DNA of 64,000 nt, from the NCBI GenBank assembly GCA_937996665.1, contig CALKUU010000263.1, positions 1,337-65,336 of the forward strand, in the 5' to 3' direction. The translations under genes were made by a program, and so were the position numbers. This document shows positions 55,382-63,528 of the stretch, one piece after another. This DNA is from an uncultured Xenococcaceae cyanobacterium (GTDB lineage: Bacteria; Cyanobacteriota; Cyanobacteriia; Cyanobacteriales; Xenococcaceae). Below the pieces are notes generated by a model. It was not told the origin of the DNA. It saw only the letters and a list, made by a program, of their open reading frames with translations, and did not search any database. How positions within the stretch are numbered: position 1 is the stretch's first letter; each line of letters opens with the position of its first letter.

Positions 55382-56332
55382 ATGAGCCCTGTAAAAACTT
55401 TAGCTAAATCTCAACTAAATACATCTTTGGCTAAACCTTTTTTAAAATGGGTCGGTGGTAAGTCTCAATTAAGAGAGCAGTTTTCTTCTTTGTACCCGAC
55501 ACAATTGAAGACAGGGGAAATTAAAAAATATTTTGAGCTTTGCACCGGAGGAGGAGCAATATTTTTTGATGTTATTCAAAAGTTTGATCTAAATCAGATA
55601 TTCCTTAATGATGTCAATCAAGATTTGATTCTTGCCTATCGGGTAATCCAGTGTCATCCTTGGGAATTAATTGCTGAACTAGTTCACTTAAAAGAAAAAT
55701 TATTTCAACTTGAGATTGAGCAAAGATCTGAGCTTTTTTACCAAATTAGAAAAGAGTATAATCAGCAGCGGATTAATTTTGATTATCAAAAGCTATCGAC
55801 AGAAGCGATTAAAAGAGTAGCTTGGTTGATCTTTATTAATAAAACTTGCTTCAATGGCTTATATAGAACCAACAAGAAAGGTGATTTTAATGCACCTTTT
55901 GGGAGATATAAAAACCCGAAAATTTGCGATCAGGAAAATCTTCTCAGAGTTTCTGAAATATTGCAGGGGGTGACTCTCGTTTCTGGTAGTTATCGCAGTT
56001 TAGATAAATTTATTGATTGTCAGTCCTTTATATATATAGATCCTCCCTATCGTCCTATTACAAAGACCGCTAATTTTACTGCTTATGCCAAGTCAAGATT
56101 TAATGATGCTAGCCAAGTCGAACTAAGTCATTACTATGCTCATTTAAGTGAAGACTATGGGGCAAAGGTGATGCTGAGTAATTCTAATCCTCATAATAGC
56201 GATCCTGTCGACGATTTTTTTCACGACCTTTATTGCGACTATAAAATTAGCGAAGTGTATGCAACTCGCATGATTAATAGCGATGCTAGTAAAAGAGGCA
56301 AAATTACTGAACTAGTAATTACTAATTATTAG
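55382..56332 (+). CDS. Dam/DpnM-family DNA adenine methyltransferase (orphan)
   Basis: KPFLKWVGGKSQL, NKTCFNGLYRTN, FNAPFG, YIDPPY, MLSNS, ELVITNY; no adjacent endonuclease. Confidence 0.88.
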   Translation: MSPVKTLAKSQLNTSLAKPFLKWVGGKSQLREQFSSLYPTQLKTGEIKKYFELCTGGGAIFFDVIQKFDLNQIFLNDVNQDLILAYRVIQCHPWELIAELVHLKEKLFQLEIEQRSELFYQIRKEYNQQRINFDYQKLSTEAIKRVAWLIFINKTCFNGLYRTNKKGDFNAPFGRYKNPKICDQENLLRVSEILQGVTLVSGSYRSLDKFIDCQSFIYIDPPYRPITKTANFTAYAKSRFNDASQVELSHYYAHLSEDYGAKVMLSNSNPHNSDPVDDFFHDLYCDYKISEVYATRMINSDASKRGKITELVITNY

Positions 56333-57343: not shown

Positions 57344-57769
57344 GGAAATACCTTAATCATGAGTAGAAATATCTATTCTTTTAACGGTTCGCTATTGAAC
57401 TATCTGTTTGAATTTAAGGAAGATAGTCACCCTTTGCAAAACTATTTTTTTTGTTTGTTATTTTCTCATCTAATTATTATTTGTTTTTTATCTAAAAACA
57501 GTCATTTTCTCAGCTTTTTCTCAGCTAAAAATCATGAAAAAATAAGATTGCCTGTGAGATTTAAATAACTCTTGATTGCTATTGTTATTTCATTTATTCT
57601 TTTTGCTGAATTTTTATCATTAATTGGTTGATTGCACGCTGTATTTTTTAGGTAAAATTAAGTTTATTTTGTTGTTAAAGAAGTCGGTAGGAAATCTCTC
57701 TATTTCTTGTTTAACAAGGATCTTGTTTGCCAATAGATAAAGATTAATGATTTATTTATGGGAAAATGA

Positions 57770-57887
57770 TCACTCTATTTATCAGTATTAGATCACTGAA
57801 TAACTTGTTCTTAATTACGGTTGGAATAAGTCTATAATCACTAATTTTTTGCTCTAATAATCACAATTTAAAGCAACATTAAATCAC
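57770..57887 (+). promoter_or_regulatory. Phased TCAC array (22-23 bp period) upstream of lyase copy 1
   Basis: TCAC at 57770, 57793, 57838, 57861, 57884; TTAC at 57815. Confidence 0.65.
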
Positions 57888-57967
57888 CGTAAAGTTATTG
57901 TGAAACTTTTATAAAAGTAACAAGTTAATTAAAGAAAACTTCACACGTTACTAATTAAAAGTTATTT

Positions 57968-59698
57968 ATGAGTACTCCGGTTAGCAATTCAAGTCTTTTT
58001 ACAAACGCGACTATTACTAATAGTTGGAATGGTGGTTATCGATTGGAAGTTGATATCTCCTCCGATGCTTCTGCTGAAGATTGGGAATTAAATTTTGACC
58101 TTCCATACACAATTAGAGGTGCATTCGGTGGCGTAGATTTAGTTGAAAATGGCAATGGTAGCTACAGTATTAGTGGTAATAACGCTAGAAGAAGAGATTT
58201 AGACCCCGGTGAAACGGCTAGAGCTGTATTTATCATTGATGATTTGGGTGGCGATGACATTATTCCTGAATTTAATATCTCTCCTGTTGATAGCAGTGCA
58301 GCACCTTTAACTAGTAGTGCTACAGCAGTAACAAGCTCTTTGCAGGCAGAAGATATTGTCTCAAATGCAGCAACCTCAAGTAGTCCAACTCCAGCTTCTA
58401 GCTCCACAGATACAATTACCCAGGATGTAGATACCTCAACTGATATCACTACCGAGTCATCTGATAGTTCTGTTTCCGCTTCTTCCCGTATTACTAATGA
58501 TTGGAATGGTGGCTACAGAATTGAAGTAGATATTTCCGCAGAATCAGCCGCTAGTGACTGGACATTAGATTTTGATTTTCCTTATCAAATTAGAAATGCT
58601 TTTGGAGTTGATCTAACTGATAACGGTAACGGAACCTACTCTATTAGCGGACAACGTAGTGGTCAGGATCTAAGTGCAGGTGAATCAACTAGAGCAGTAT
58701 TTATTATTGACGATGGTGGTAATAGCGCTATTGACCCTACTTTTGGTGGTGGTTCAAGCTCTGCCCCTACGGTTGCTGCTTCTCCAGTAAGCACTTCTTC
58801 TGCAAGTCCCTCACCTTCTGTAAGTACTACTCCTACAGGAAGTACACCACTTATTCCGGTTGCACAGACTCCTTTGGCAGTTGCTCAATCACCTCTAACT
58901 CAGGGTCAAGATCAGGATTTGTCTGATCAAAATCTTAGTTCTAGTGCTATTACCGTCGGATTTGAAGACCATGCTGCTGGAATTAGATATACTCAGGCAG
59001 TTCAAAGACAAGACTGGACGAATGTTCGTTTCTCTACCAATGGCATGAATGAACTTTCCCAAATCTCGAATAGATTTGCTCGTTCGGGGAATCAATCTTT
59101 GAGAATTACCTACCCTGCATCCGAGTCTAGCGGTCGGAATGCTGCGTGGATAGTTCCTGAAGAAAGAGAATACTATCTATCTTATTGGGTAAGACTAGAC
59201 GAAAACTTTGACTTTGATGGAGATAGATTTAGTGGTGGTAAGTTACCTGGACTAGGTTCTGGTGATTTATGTTCTGGTGGTCAAACCTGTGATGGCACCA
59301 ATGGATTTACATCTCGTCCACACTGGCGTGAAAATGGTAGAGCGGTTCTTTATCTATATCACCAAGATAAGCCTGGACAATTTGGTGAAGATATTCAGCT
59401 TGTTGGTCAAGACGGAGAAGATATTTTCTTCGAGCGTGGTAGATGGACAAATATTACTCAACGCGTAAGAATCAACGACCAAGGTCAGGCTAATGGTGAG
59501 GTAGATGTTTACTATGATGGCGAACATGTACTCTCTAGAGATGGGATCCGCTTTGCTAGTGATGGTTCTGGAATTGATACCGCTTACTTTAGTACTTTCC
59601 ATGGTGGAAGTGGTCCTGGTTGGACTCCTGGACAAGATACTAACGCTTACTTCGATGATTTCATTGTTTCCACTAATGCCGCTGATGTCGGTCTCTAA
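57968..59698 (+). CDS. CBM2-like x2, Ser/Thr/Pro linker, PL14-like polysaccharide lyase (copy 1)
   Basis: Two NxWNGGYxxEVDI...WxLxF...GE domains; catalytic domain FDF...GGKLPGL...GFTSRPHWR...GRWTNI...FSTFHGG. Confidence 0.75.
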   Translation: MSTPVSNSSLFTNATITNSWNGGYRLEVDISSDASAEDWELNFDLPYTIRGAFGGVDLVENGNGSYSISGNNARRRDLDPGETARAVFIIDDLGGDDIIPEFNISPVDSSAAPLTSSATAVTSSLQAEDIVSNAATSSSPTPASSSTDTITQDVDTSTDITTESSDSSVSASSRITNDWNGGYRIEVDISAESAASDWTLDFDFPYQIRNAFGVDLTDNGNGTYSISGQRSGQDLSAGESTRAVFIIDDGGNSAIDPTFGGGSSSAPTVAASPVSTSSASPSPSVSTTPTGSTPLIPVAQTPLAVAQSPLTQGQDQDLSDQNLSSSAITVGFEDHAAGIRYTQAVQRQDWTNVRFSTNGMNELSQISNRFARSGNQSLRITYPASESSGRNAAWIVPEEREYYLSYWVRLDENFDFDGDRFSGGKLPGLGSGDLCSGGQTCDGTNGFTSRPHWRENGRAVLYLYHQDKPGQFGEDIQLVGQDGEDIFFERGRWTNITQRVRINDQGQANGEVDVYYDGEHVLSRDGIRFASDGSGIDTAYFSTFHGGSGPGWTPGQDTNAYFDDFIVSTNAADVGL

Positions 59699-59976
59699 TT
59701 TTCACATCAAGAAAGAAGTTAATTTAGTAGAGAGTAACTACTTTCAATTTGAGAGAGCCTATACCGAGTTTTAAAAAATTCAATGGAATAAAACATCGCT
59801 TAACTCTCTAATCGTCTGCTTTTAGACTTATTTTAAAATAAAGACTAGCGATCGCAGTTGTCGTTATAGTCAATGAACAAGGTTTACTCGGTATTTATCA
59901 AGTTATTAGATATAGAGGGAATGTAGATTGGAATTCTCTCCCTCTATTGCAACTAATGAGTAGTCCAGACTAAAAG

Positions 59977-60082
59977 TTATTCGGTATAGACTTCTTGTTT
60001 GTAATTTTTGAGAAAAACATCTGCAAGTCGTCTTAGAGTAACCTCCCCTACTAATGCTAATTAGTGATTTTGCAATAAATGC
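59977..60082 (-). pseudogene. Remnant of the 3' end of the GT2 gene
   Basis: Aligns to 62596-62703, including the stop context AAAAGTTATTCGGTATA and a 33-bp identical block (60050-60082 = 62671-62703). Confidence 0.8.
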
Positions 60083-60203
60083 ATATATACCCTCGATAGG
60101 TTTTAGCTTCTTCTCTATATCTAATGAGCTAACTTGCTCTGATTGATAAATGATTTTGGTTGTAATACGTTGTGATTTAAGTCAGTTTTTTTTACTGTTC
60201 TTG

Positions 60204-60502
60204 TCACTTGCAAACTAGTTTGAAATCACTTTTTTGTCTGATTTTAAATACTCATGAAGTCGAACATTGATCACTATTTTAATATTTGTTCTGTCACTAT
60301 TTAATTGAGTTTTTAATCACAAAAAAAAGAGATGTTGATTACTTCTTTCGAGAGACTTGTCGCACATCAAGAATGAGATTGCAATCATTATCTCTATTGC
60401 TTGCTGTCACTGCATTTCTGCTTTTCAAATCACGATTAAAATAAGCTTTTGGTCACCTTTATTTTGTCTTGATAATCACAACTTGAAACAACATCAAATC
60501 AC
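60204..60502 (+). promoter_or_regulatory. Phased TCAC array (22-23 bp period) upstream of lyase copy 2
   Basis: Exact TCAC at 60204, 60226, 60271, 60294, 60317, 60407, 60430, 60453, 60476, 60499; in-phase variants at 60248, 60339, 60362, 60385. Confidence 0.8.
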
Positions 60503-60582
60503 CGTAAAGTTATCGTAAAACTTTTATAAAGGTAATAAGTTAATGAAAGAAAAATTCACAAGTTACTAATTAAAAGTTATTT

Positions 60583-62292
60583 ATGATTACTCAAGTAGAT
60601 AATTCGAATCTTTTTACAAACGCTACTATTACTAATAGTTGGAATGGTGGTTATAAGTTAGTAGTAGATATTACCTCAGACTCTACGGTTGACGATTGGA
60701 TCTTGAACTTCGACCTTCCCCACACGATTAGAGGCGCATATGGTGGAATAGATTTAGTTGACAATGGCAATGGTAGCTATAGCATCAGCGGAAATAATGC
60801 AAGAAGAAGAGATTTAGACCCAGGTGAAACTGCTAGAGCTGTTTTTATTATTGATTATGCTGATGGTGAGGACATAATTCCTGAATTTAATATTGATCCT
60901 CTTTTAAACCGTTCTTCAGCAGTAACAAGCTCCTTACAAGCAGAAGATATTGTTTCAAACGCAGTAGCCTCAAATAGTTCAACTCCAGTTTCTAGTTCCA
61001 CAGATACAATTACCCAAGATGTAGATACTTCCGCTGATATAGCTACTGAGTCATCTGATAGTCCTGTGTCCGCTTCTTCTCGTATTACTAACGATTGGAA
61101 CGGTGGTTATAAAATTGAAGTAGATATTTCCGCAGAATCAGCTACTGATGACTGGACATTAAACTTTGATTTTCCTTATCAAATTAGAAATGCTTATGGA
61201 GTAGATCTGACTGATAACGGAAACGGAACCTACTCTATTAGTGGTCAACGTAGTGGTCAGGATCTAAGTGCAGGGGAATCAACTAGAGCAGTATTCATAA
61301 TTAATGATGGTGGTAATGATGCTGTTGCACCTACTTTTGGTGGTGGTTCAAGCTCTGCCCCTGCGGTTGTTGCTTCTCCAGTAAGTACTCCTGTGGCTAG
61401 TCCTGCTCCTTCTGTAACGACTACGCCAGCAGTAAGCGCACCAATTATGCCAGTTGTACAGGCTCCCTTAGCAGTTGCAGAGTCGCCTCTAGCTCAGGGT
61501 CAAGATCAGGATCTATCAAATCAAAATCTTAGCTCTAGTGCCATCACAGTAGGGTTTGAACGCCATAACGTAGGAACAAGATATACTCAAGCCGTTCAAA
61601 GACTGGATTGGGCAAATCCTCGTTTCTCTACTAATGGAATGAATGACCTTTCTCAAATCTCGAATAGATTTGCTCGTTCTGGGAATCAATCTTTGAGAAT
61701 TACCTATCCGTCATCTGAGTCTAGCGGTCGGAATGCTGCTTGGGTAGTTCCTGAAGAGAAAGAATACTATCTATCCTATTGGGTAAGACTAGACGAAAAC
61801 TTTGACTTTGATGGAGATAGATTTAGTGGTGGTAAATTGCCTGGACTAGGTGCTGGTGATTTATGTTCTGGTGGTCAAACTTGTAATGGAACTAACGGAT
61901 TTACATCTCGTCCTCACTGGCGCGAAAATGGTAGAGCGGTTCTTTATCTATATCACCAAGATAAGCCCGGAAGATTTGGAGAAGACATTCAACTGGTTGG
62001 TCAAGATGGTAACGATATCTTCTTTGAGCGTGGTAGATGGACAAATATTACTCAACGAGTAAGAATCAACGACCAAGGTCAGAGAAATGGTTCTGTCGAT
62101 GTCTATTATGATGGCGAGCATGTTCTATCGAGAGATGGTTTACGCTTTGCTAGTGATGGTTCTGGAATTGATACCGCTTACTTTAGTACTTTCCATGGTG
62201 GAAGTGGCCCTGGTTGGACTCCTGGACAAGATACTAACGCTTACTTCGATGATTTCATTGTTTCCACTAATGCGGCTGATGTCGGTCTCTAA
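60583..62292 (+). CDS. CBM2-like x2, Ser/Thr/Pro linker, PL14-like polysaccharide lyase (copy 2)
   Basis: Same architecture and motifs as 57968-59698; high amino-acid identity. Confidence 0.75.
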   Translation: MITQVDNSNLFTNATITNSWNGGYKLVVDITSDSTVDDWILNFDLPHTIRGAYGGIDLVDNGNGSYSISGNNARRRDLDPGETARAVFIIDYADGEDIIPEFNIDPLLNRSSAVTSSLQAEDIVSNAVASNSSTPVSSSTDTITQDVDTSADIATESSDSPVSASSRITNDWNGGYKIEVDISAESATDDWTLNFDFPYQIRNAYGVDLTDNGNGTYSISGQRSGQDLSAGESTRAVFIINDGGNDAVAPTFGGGSSSAPAVVASPVSTPVASPAPSVTTTPAVSAPIMPVVQAPLAVAESPLAQGQDQDLSNQNLSSSAITVGFERHNVGTRYTQAVQRLDWANPRFSTNGMNDLSQISNRFARSGNQSLRITYPSSESSGRNAAWVVPEEKEYYLSYWVRLDENFDFDGDRFSGGKLPGLGAGDLCSGGQTCNGTNGFTSRPHWRENGRAVLYLYHQDKPGRFGEDIQLVGQDGNDIFFERGRWTNITQRVRINDQGQRNGSVDVYYDGEHVLSRDGLRFASDGSGIDTAYFSTFHGGSGPGWTPGQDTNAYFDDFIVSTNAADVGL

Positions 62293-62595
62293 TTTTCACA
62301 TCAAGAAAGAAGTTAATTTAGCAGAGAGTAACTACTTTCAACTCAAGAGATTCTTTATCGAGTTTTCAAAAGTTCAATTGGAATAAAACATCGCTTAATT
62401 CTCTAGTTATTCCTTTTTACACTTAGACGTTTACGTAAATTTAAAGACTAGCGATCGCAGTTGTCGCTATTGTCTGTAAAGCAGGTTTATCCGGTATTTA
62501 TCAAGTCATTAAATAATAGAGGGAATGTACCTGGAAATTGTTTCCCTCTATTAAAACCACAACTATTACAACTAAAAAATAGTACAAGCAAAAAG

Positions 62596-63528
62596 TTATT
62601 CGGTATACACTTCATGTTTGTAGTCTTGATAAAACACTCCCACAAGTCCCCCTAGGGTACCCATTCCCTGACTAATGCTAATTAGTGATTTTGCAATAAA
62701 TGCTTTACCCATTACCAATGAAGGAATTAAGCGAAAGATACCGATAAAAATGAGAGCAAATCCTTTGAGAAGGCGTATGAATTGAGTTGCAATTGAAGGA
62801 TACAATTCCATTTCAAAAGCACTGTAATTACTCCACATACGATAAGAGCGAAATAAAATCCACTTTAACTTGGTACGAGAAGCGGGGATATCATCATAAA
62901 CAACTGCATTATCTGCCCAAACTATTTTGTGACCTGCTTTAGTCAGATTCAAAAATAAATAAGAATCAGAGCCTCCAGATAAAGCGAAACGATGATCAAA
63001 GACGGGATTTAACTCCCGCAGGATATCGGCTTTGATCATTACGTTATTCGTGAAGGCTACTTCCTTCTCTTCCCCATCCTGATAACGTGGAGCCTCAAAA
63101 TATCCACAATTAAGAATCCATTCAGGAGCATGATTATCCTCAAAAATTGGCACTGCTGGACCTGTCACAATAGCTGCACCATGCTCTTGCTGTGCTACCA
63201 ACAGCTCTTCTAGCCAATTCTTCTCTGGAATTTCATCATCGTCAACAATAACTATAAAGTCGGAATTTTCAGAGGTCAGGGATATTGATTTATTCCGTGC
63301 ATAAGTTATCCCTCGCTGGGGTTCAACATCTGTCTTGAGAGTCCACTGAAATTCTGGTTCGATCTCAGCACAAACTTTTTTTGCTATCCCAGCATTGTCA
63401 TTATCAACAACTATAACCTCAATGTCGGGACGTTCAATTTTAGTAAAGGTCAACTTATTTAATCCCTTTAGTAAAAGCTTTAATCCTTTTTCCCTTTTGT
63501 AAGTTATTACGCATACCGAAATTAGCAT
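62596..63528 (-). CDS. GT2 family glycosyltransferase (start revised to the ATG at 63528)
   Basis: MLISVCVITY, VIVVDND, GITYARN, FIVIVDDDE, GGSDSYLF. Confidence 0.88.
   Translation of the reverse strand: MLISVCVITYKREKGLKLLLKGLNKLTFTKIERPDIEVIVVDNDNAGIAKKVCAEIEPEFQWTLKTDVEPQRGITYARNKSISLTSENSDFIVIVDDDEIPEKNWLEELLVAQQEHGAAIVTGPAVPIFEDNHAPEWILNCGYFEAPRYQDGEEKEVAFTNNVMIKADILRELNPVFDHRFALSGGSDSYLFLNLTKAGHKIVWADNAVVYDDIPASRTKLKWILFRSYRMWSNYSAFEMELYPSIATQFIRLLKGFALIFIGIFRLIPSLVMGKAFIAKSLISISQGMGTLGGLVGVFYQDYKHEVYTE

Follow-up and report, generated by a model that had tools for sequence, protein, structure and literature searches.

What is a row of evenly phased TCAC tetramers doing in front of a gene for a polysaccharide lyase, and which protein would read it? 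The question is raised by a stretch of 64,000 nucleotides (hereafter "the window") from the genome of a Pleurocapsales/Xenococcaceae cyanobacterium, in which two lyase genes, here called copy 1 and copy 2, each stand downstream of such a row. The PanB protein of this genome shares 82% identity with its counterpart in Hyella patelloides. The answer put forward in this article is that the row is a real, selected and phased regulatory array, best described as a variant of the CRP-type promoter, and no description of phased half-site promoter arrays was found in the searchable literature. The regulator itself is proposed with moderate confidence.

The array upstream of copy 1 and its history

The initial annotation had placed TCAC or TTAC tetramers upstream of copy 1 at 57770, 57793, 57815, 57838, 57861 and 57884, with gaps of 23, 22, 23, 23 and 23 bp, and these coordinates proved exact (Table 1). 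It had also pointed to a further TCAC 57 bp past the proximal slot (57941) and to a copy 2 pair with the same +57 offset (60499/60556), and both are found in the sequence. Upstream of copy 2, that pair was correct while the extent of the array was understated, since it has 15 slots. The base before each copy 1 slot is an A (6/6 slots). In an alignment of the 15 perfect slots from the two lyase promoters, the information is confined to R-TCAC (position -1: A 11, G 4), and the 18 spacer columns carry almost none.

Table 1. Features of the two lyase loci, in coordinates of the window.
Feature	Position	Strand	Remark
Slot 1, distal: near-palindrome tGGGA-aaatga-TCACt	57759..57774	+	read from the sequence; 7/8 core bases of GTGA-N6-TCAC
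Slot 2: aTCAC, TCAC start 57793	57792..57796	+	23 bp past slot 1
Slot 3: aTTAC, TTAC start 57815	57814..57818	+	one mismatch; copy 2 counterpart at 60430 is TCAC
Slot 4: aTCAC, TCAC start 57838	57837..57841	+	
Slot 5: aTCAC, TCAC start 57861	57860..57864	+	
Slot 6, proximal: aTCAC, TCAC start 57884	57883..57887	+	pseudo-dyad near -41.5, taking 57910-57915 as the -10 box
Predicted -10 box TATAAA, copy 1	57910..57915	+	26 bp past the start of the proximal TCAC; in block TTTTATAA, invariant in four paralogues
Predicted transcription start, A	57922..57922	+	7 nt past the -10 box; placed from the position of that box
Extra TCAC inside the predicted 5' leader	57941..57944	+	at +57 relative to the proximal slot; 2.5 periods away, not in phase with the row
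Lyase copy 1, 576 aa: CBM2 module and PL14 lyase domain	57968..59698	+	Pfam PF21294 (E = 3e-34) and PF00553 (E = 9e-11)
Copy 2 array, 15 slots: distal TGTGA-tttaag-TCAG, followed by 14 slots ending with the proximal TCAC (60499)	60171..60502	+	proximal six slots homologous to copy 1
Predicted -10 box TATAAA, copy 2	60525..60530	+	26 bp past the proximal TCAC
Lyase copy 2, 569 aa: also CBM2 and PL14	60583..62292	+	protein 86% identical to that of copy 1

Chance is a poor explanation for this regularity. There are 7 TCAC in the intergenic region of 624 bp, for an expected 1.4. If a chain is defined as TCAC on a 22/23-bp lattice with one skipped slot allowed, the observed chain counts 5, and in 20,000 first-order Markov shuffles the longest was 3 (reached twice), never 5. 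In the whole 4.15-Mb assembly there are only three chains of at least 4 TCAC, all of them within the two lyase promoters, and the lattice scan gave no further array outside these. Genome-wide, the distances between TCAC tetramers mostly follow codon periodicity, and GTGA-N6-TCAC is not enriched over other spacings. The phased six-slot TCAC/TTAC array upstream of copy 1 is confirmed as real, far beyond chance.

The two promoters share a history. The segments 57793-60082 and 60407-62703 are 84% identical, and the identity between the promoters, taken at a fixed offset of 2615 bp, falls from 22/23 in the proximal slot to 12-14/23 in the three distal slots and to none upstream of 57770. Judged by this alignment, copies 1 and 2 derive from one tandem duplication. 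That both copies have the +57 TCAC follows from the overall identity of the proximal 115 bp, about 90-96%. The nine distal slots of copy 2 (60182-60362), for which copy 1 has no counterpart upstream, sit in the roughly 300 bp separating the duplicated segments. From 60182 to 60499, 10 of the 15 copy 2 slots are perfect, the rest reading TCAG, TACT, TTAC, GCAC and TCAT, and the distal site TGTGA-tttaag-TCAG (60171-60185), with its one mismatch, is in phase with the array that it heads.

A promoter core of about 90 bp is common to four lyase paralogues of this genome, namely copy 1, copy 2 and one gene each on contigs C14 and C312. The proximal slot is kept in three of the four, and the +57 TCAC is kept as well. 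On the first of these contigs (L023, G000:C14, 1-110) the sequence begins 18 bp before the proximal TCAC; on the second (L024, G000:C312, 1340-1462) there is no array, the proximal slot reads TCGC, ATC stands in place of the ATG of the others, and the N-terminal CBM modules are missing. A further paralogue, on C144, has an unrelated upstream region. In related organisms, no array was found upstream of the lyase homologues.

Could the array then be a decaying tandem repeat, or a pattern without any function? Since both promoters come from one duplication, part of what they share is certainly shared by descent. A tandem repeat, minisatellite or iteron should however show likeness across its whole unit, and here the units are dissimilar from slot to slot: Tandem Repeats Finder reported nothing over the array, a self-comparison with the motifs masked gave no peak at 23, 46 or 69 bp, and a slot-by-slot matrix of the spacers gave a mean of 6.2/18 identities (34%), which is background at every register, with the sole exception of the diagonal joining the homologous slots of copies 1 and 2. 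A repeat identity was rejected on these grounds. The initial annotation had proposed that at the distal slots tetramers and phase were kept while the spacers diverged between the two promoters, and had taken this as selection on the phased motif itself. The alignment of the six slot pairs bears this out, with 2 differences in 24 tetramer positions against 37 in 93 spacer positions (Fisher p = 0.003, the slots having been defined from copy 1). Even stronger support comes from independent cyanobacterial promoters, spread over 47 genera, whose spacers are unrelated and whose downstream genes differ, yet in which both the RTCAC lattice and its distance from the -10 box stay constant. The pattern of substitutions shows purifying selection on the tetramers, and a functionless relic or chance pattern, which shuffled sequence does not reproduce, is for practical purposes excluded.

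Some other features of the region may be recorded here. Within the AT-rich region upstream of the array, Tandem Repeats Finder reports a perfect 2 x 11-bp tandem repeat of TTTTCTCAGCT at 57505-57526. Three slots read GATCAC (57768-57771, 57791-57794 and 60269-60272) and hence contain a GATC site, and a gene for a D12-class adenine methyltransferase (55382-56332) lies 1.6 kb upstream; methylation at the GATC-containing slots, overlapping the half-sites, could occur. A G at -2 is not enriched in the 108 internal and proximal slots examined in other genomes.

Promoter anatomy and the same layout across cyanobacteria

A consensus scan found no sigma-70 -35/-10 pair at copy 1, and no -35 hexamer. 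With TATAAA taken as the -10 box, the proximal TCAC would occupy -38 to -35 and the pseudo-dyad of the 16-bp site would fall at -41.5, a geometry that follows from the fixed distance of 26 bp between slot and box. The ATG at 57968 is at +84 from the proximal TCAC. In cyanobacteria, promoters that depend on an activator are marked by a -10 box without a -35 box. The stretch from the proximal TCAC to the -10 box contains an 11-bp direct repeat in copy 2, CGTAAAGTTAT / CGTAAAACTTT (60503-60524); at the equivalent place (57888-57909) copy 1 reads CGTAAAGTTAT / TGTGAAACTTT.

Three features were missing from the initial annotation: the distal CRP-type (near-)palindrome, the class II end point of the row, and its membership in a widespread layout. 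The last emerged from a search with the pattern TCAC-N18/19-TCAC-N19-TCAC-N18/19-TCAC in a sample of 401 genomes from across Cyanobacteriia, representing 170 genera. This four-slot pattern has matches in 83 of the genomes and 47 of the genera; the reversed control pattern gave about 15 genomes, mostly with low-complexity repeats. Twenty-eight informative loci were examined, all chosen by their TCAC chain alone, without regard to any palindrome, and duplicate sequences were dropped for each count (leaving 27 for the palindrome and 25 for the -10 box). These arrays have 4-6 slots, so that the 15 of copy 2 make the longest among those examined, and their 22- or 23-bp intervals come in variable order, four of them adding up to 89-91 bp.

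In these loci the first slot differs from the rest. It reads tGTGA-N6-TCACa, with the left half conserved at G-10 (23/27), T-9 (24/27), G-8 (26/27) and A-7 (24/27). The other 108 slots show R-TCAC alone (A 71%, G 22%), and their left half has at most a weak G at -8 (38/108). In 19 of 25 loci a -10-like nATnnT stands exactly 26 bp downstream of the last TCAC, and it is almost absent at other distances. Seven of 25 comparable promoters also have a further TCAC between +47 and +59, where about 1.3 would be expected. In 11 of the 25 loci (within L120-L142) there is also a GAGTTC-like hexamer 41-43 bp past the proximal TCAC, just beyond the predicted start; the promoter in the window has the +57 TCAC and no GAGTTC.

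The copy 1 promoter has two traits of this class, at least four RTCAC at 22-23 bp (six slots, five of them perfect, with unique spacers) and a -10 box at +26 with a gene on the same strand within about 150 bp; its first slot reads GGGA-N6-TCAC, which matches 7 of the 8 core bases of the palindrome. By its shared geometry, it belongs to a recurrent cyanobacterial layout. Its gene is another matter. Elsewhere the arrays mostly precede genes for small proteins, that is, a family of about 71 aa, a second small family, and DUF4278 proteins, none of which was found in this genome. The commonest is the ~71-aa family (LLPGA.SE...TLADRYGLMAA...GR.RVV.E.S; loci L127, L128, L135-L137, L140, L142 and L143), which carries the motif TLADRYGLMAA and has 760 homologues, all annotated as hypothetical and mostly from filamentous cyanobacteria. 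As all the small proteins carry this annotation, they give no clue to the signal. In the 61 Xenococcaceae genomes, three-slot matches stay at control level with the exception of this genome. With the family at background and the lyase homologues of relatives devoid of arrays, the use of the layout for lyases in this lineage is unusual.

A candidate regulator, its proposed mode of action and the rival readings

CRP, and SyCRP1 in Synechocystis, have the established consensus TGTGA-N6-TCACA (PMC2633013). Tested against it, the distal sites of copy 1 (tGGGA-N6-TCACt) and copy 2 (TGTGA-N6-TCAG) show one core mismatch and one mismatch, respectively, with half-sites at all remaining slots. Some ten genes of the CRP family are present in the genome, and only one of them (G000:C184:3766-4470, 235 aa, hereafter C184) encodes an R-E-x-x-x-R helix (RETVTR). 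The other helices include one NtcA (RVTVTR), three NtcA-like and three of the RRTGVTE type. The C184 protein has the cNMP-site residues FGEMA...RST, its nearest solved relatives in the PDB are the CRPs of T. thermophilus, M. tuberculosis and E. coli, and it is probably the orthologue of SyCRP1. All 42 of the array-bearing genomes checked have an orthologue of C184 (E <= 1e-87). This co-occurrence discriminates poorly, because the type is near-universal (about 88% of the sampled cyanobacteria, with absences concentrated in small-genome lineages), and it is confounded by phylogeny; it therefore serves only as the test of a necessary condition. The RRTGVTE-type paralogue was also considered as the general binder and rejected, being present in just 14 of the 42. 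The single class III nucleotide cyclase domain (G000:C34:42555-43085) is a possible source of the signal. Upstream of the C184 gene, where autoregulation was looked for, there is no CRP-like site. An exact search with the slr1667 site, a validated SyCRP1 target in Synechocystis, found only unrelated genomes among the matches listed, and the same site combined with a TCAC at 22-23 bp had no Synechocystis match, so that the layout is not tied to a proven CRP target.

How would such a row work? We lean, with measured confidence, towards an ordered row for a CRP-type dimer, most probably the C184 protein, acting as a cooperative class II activator. A CRP dimer has a footprint of about 22 bp, and slots at 22-23 bp would thus correspond to back-to-back footprints. 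The full or near-full 16-bp distal site (57759-57774 in copy 1) would nucleate binding, and further dimers, covering some 22 bp each, would align side by side, each held by one RTCAC half-site and by its neighbour. The last dimer, at about -41.5, would overlap the missing -35 element and recruit RNA polymerase to TATAAA in class II fashion. Expression of the lyase would then depend steeply on the level of active regulator, and with 6 slots at copy 1 versus 15 at copy 2 the paralogues could have different thresholds. Since the internal slots are half-sites only, dimers could bind them only with cooperativity, and the variable order of the 22- and 23-bp intervals argues for spacing from neighbour to neighbour rather than for fixed absolute positions. 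In this scheme we infer the identity of the binder, its cooperativity, activation and not repression, the transcription start, and the signal (cAMP).

Two features sit uneasily with this scheme. The distal site of copy 1 has GGGA, not GTGA, which is a point against CRP. The mean period of 22.5-22.8 bp amounts to 2.15 turns of B-DNA, and successive sites are rotated by about 50 degrees; as the period is not a whole number of turns, a simple one-face model fails, and the row would have to wind around the helix, or the DNA to be bent or untwisted.

The main rival accepts the array as real and assigns it to another factor, an uncharacterised DNA-binding protein that would contact an RTCAC once every two turns of the helix, either as a monomer or as an asymmetric dimer. 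We consider this rather unlikely. It would account for internal slots that give a 5-bp signal on one strand only and for a period that misfits an arrangement on one face, and it gains from the lack of a proven CRP target with this layout and from the uninformative co-occurrence of a near-universal CRP. The first slot is nevertheless hard to reconcile with it, for in 23-26 of 27 arrays it is the symmetric tGTGA-N6-TCACa, exactly the CRP/SyCRP1 consensus; the A preceding TCAC and the T following GTGA agree with the CRP consensus too. The proximal site is moreover at the class II position, a LytTR-domain protein is absent, and there is no 11-bp sub-repeat of the Pho-box kind.

The same array of proteins might instead silence the gene, a filament growing from the palindrome to cover the -35 region and keeping the lyase off until the regulator is inactivated. 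The proximal slot does overlap that region, and a length of 15 slots recalls spreading repressors. Promoters that have a -10 box alone and no -35 speak against silencing, and a -10 box placed at exactly 26 bp in 19 of 25 loci is more readily explained by a defined contact with RNA polymerase than by simple occlusion, which leaves repression improbable. More remote still is the idea that the motifs act in RNA, as UCAC repeats in a long 5' leader that would be bound by a protein or structured. Every motif is indeed on the coding strand, and the predicted leader contains another TCAC (57941). Against this stand the conserved -10 box, placed at a fixed distance past the array, and a distal palindrome with the two-fold symmetry of a DNA site; there is no Rfam match, and the leader hairpin of the four paralogues is weak and without covariation. 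We regard an action in RNA as very improbable.

Returning to the row of CRP-type dimers, a wider proposal can be made, although only tentatively. The arrays may represent a cyanobacterial promoter class in which CRP dimers polymerise from a full site along a 22.5-bp ruler of half-sites up to RNA polymerase, the number of slots (mostly 4-6, and 6 or 15 here) setting the steepness or threshold of the response. In this genome, two duplicated lyases of extracellular polysaccharides would have come under promoters of this class, and lyases controlled in this way could digest sheath or wall in a timed burst, for instance at baeocyte release.

CRP serves as the textbook example of an activator, with promoters that are classed by one to three separated full sites. 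A back-to-back row of half-sites, if bound by CRP, would be a new usage of this protein, that is, a cooperative nucleoprotein switch coded by length, in a layout shown by about one in five of the cyanobacterial genomes sampled. Shared control by arrays offers a handle on uncharacterised small-protein genes and, here, on polysaccharide lyases, and array promoters could become tunable parts for cyanobacterial engineering.

Comparison with known systems

Several known systems place short repeats at similar distances. The iteron arrays of R6K, RK2 and F have 17-22-bp repeats at 22-23-bp spacing, with several copies on one strand, as seen here. Iterons however conserve the whole unit, while the present array conserves 5 bp only, and they lie at plasmid origins, in contrast to an array that stands in a chromosomal promoter, at a fixed distance from the -10 box and with no rep gene. 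Response regulators of the LytTR type recognise repeats of 9 bp separated by a 12-13-bp spacer; this candidate was rejected, PF04397 having no match in the 96.7%-complete genome.

The Pho box is made of two 11-bp direct repeats per 22-bp box. In the PhoB arrays of E. coli pstS and ugpB, 22-bp direct repeats abut the -10 region, replace the -35 box and run upstream in register, much like the slots described here. The array here differs in beginning with a (near-)palindrome, and the cyanobacterial Pho box, PyTTAAPyPy(T/A), is unrelated to RTCAC. A Pho box (PhoB/SphR) was rejected as the identity of the array, with no signal found 11 bp from TCAC either in the window or in the 108 slots elsewhere.

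The other cyanobacterial TCAC arrays share with copy 1 their motif, their period, the distal palindrome and an end near -38. They differ in having a full palindrome where that of copy 1 is imperfect, and in driving proteins of about 70 aa instead of a 576-aa polysaccharide lyase.

With class II CRP promoters (E. coli CRP; SyCRP1) the likeness lies in a distal slot that comes within one core mismatch of the 16-bp consensus, in a site about 41.5 bp before the predicted start, in the missing -35 box, and in a genome that encodes a CRP with the R-E-x-x-x-R helix. Known CRP promoters have one full site or, in class III, two to three well-separated ones. Set against these one to three full sites, the lyase promoters display one full or near-full site together with 5 to 14 half-sites at 22-23 bp.
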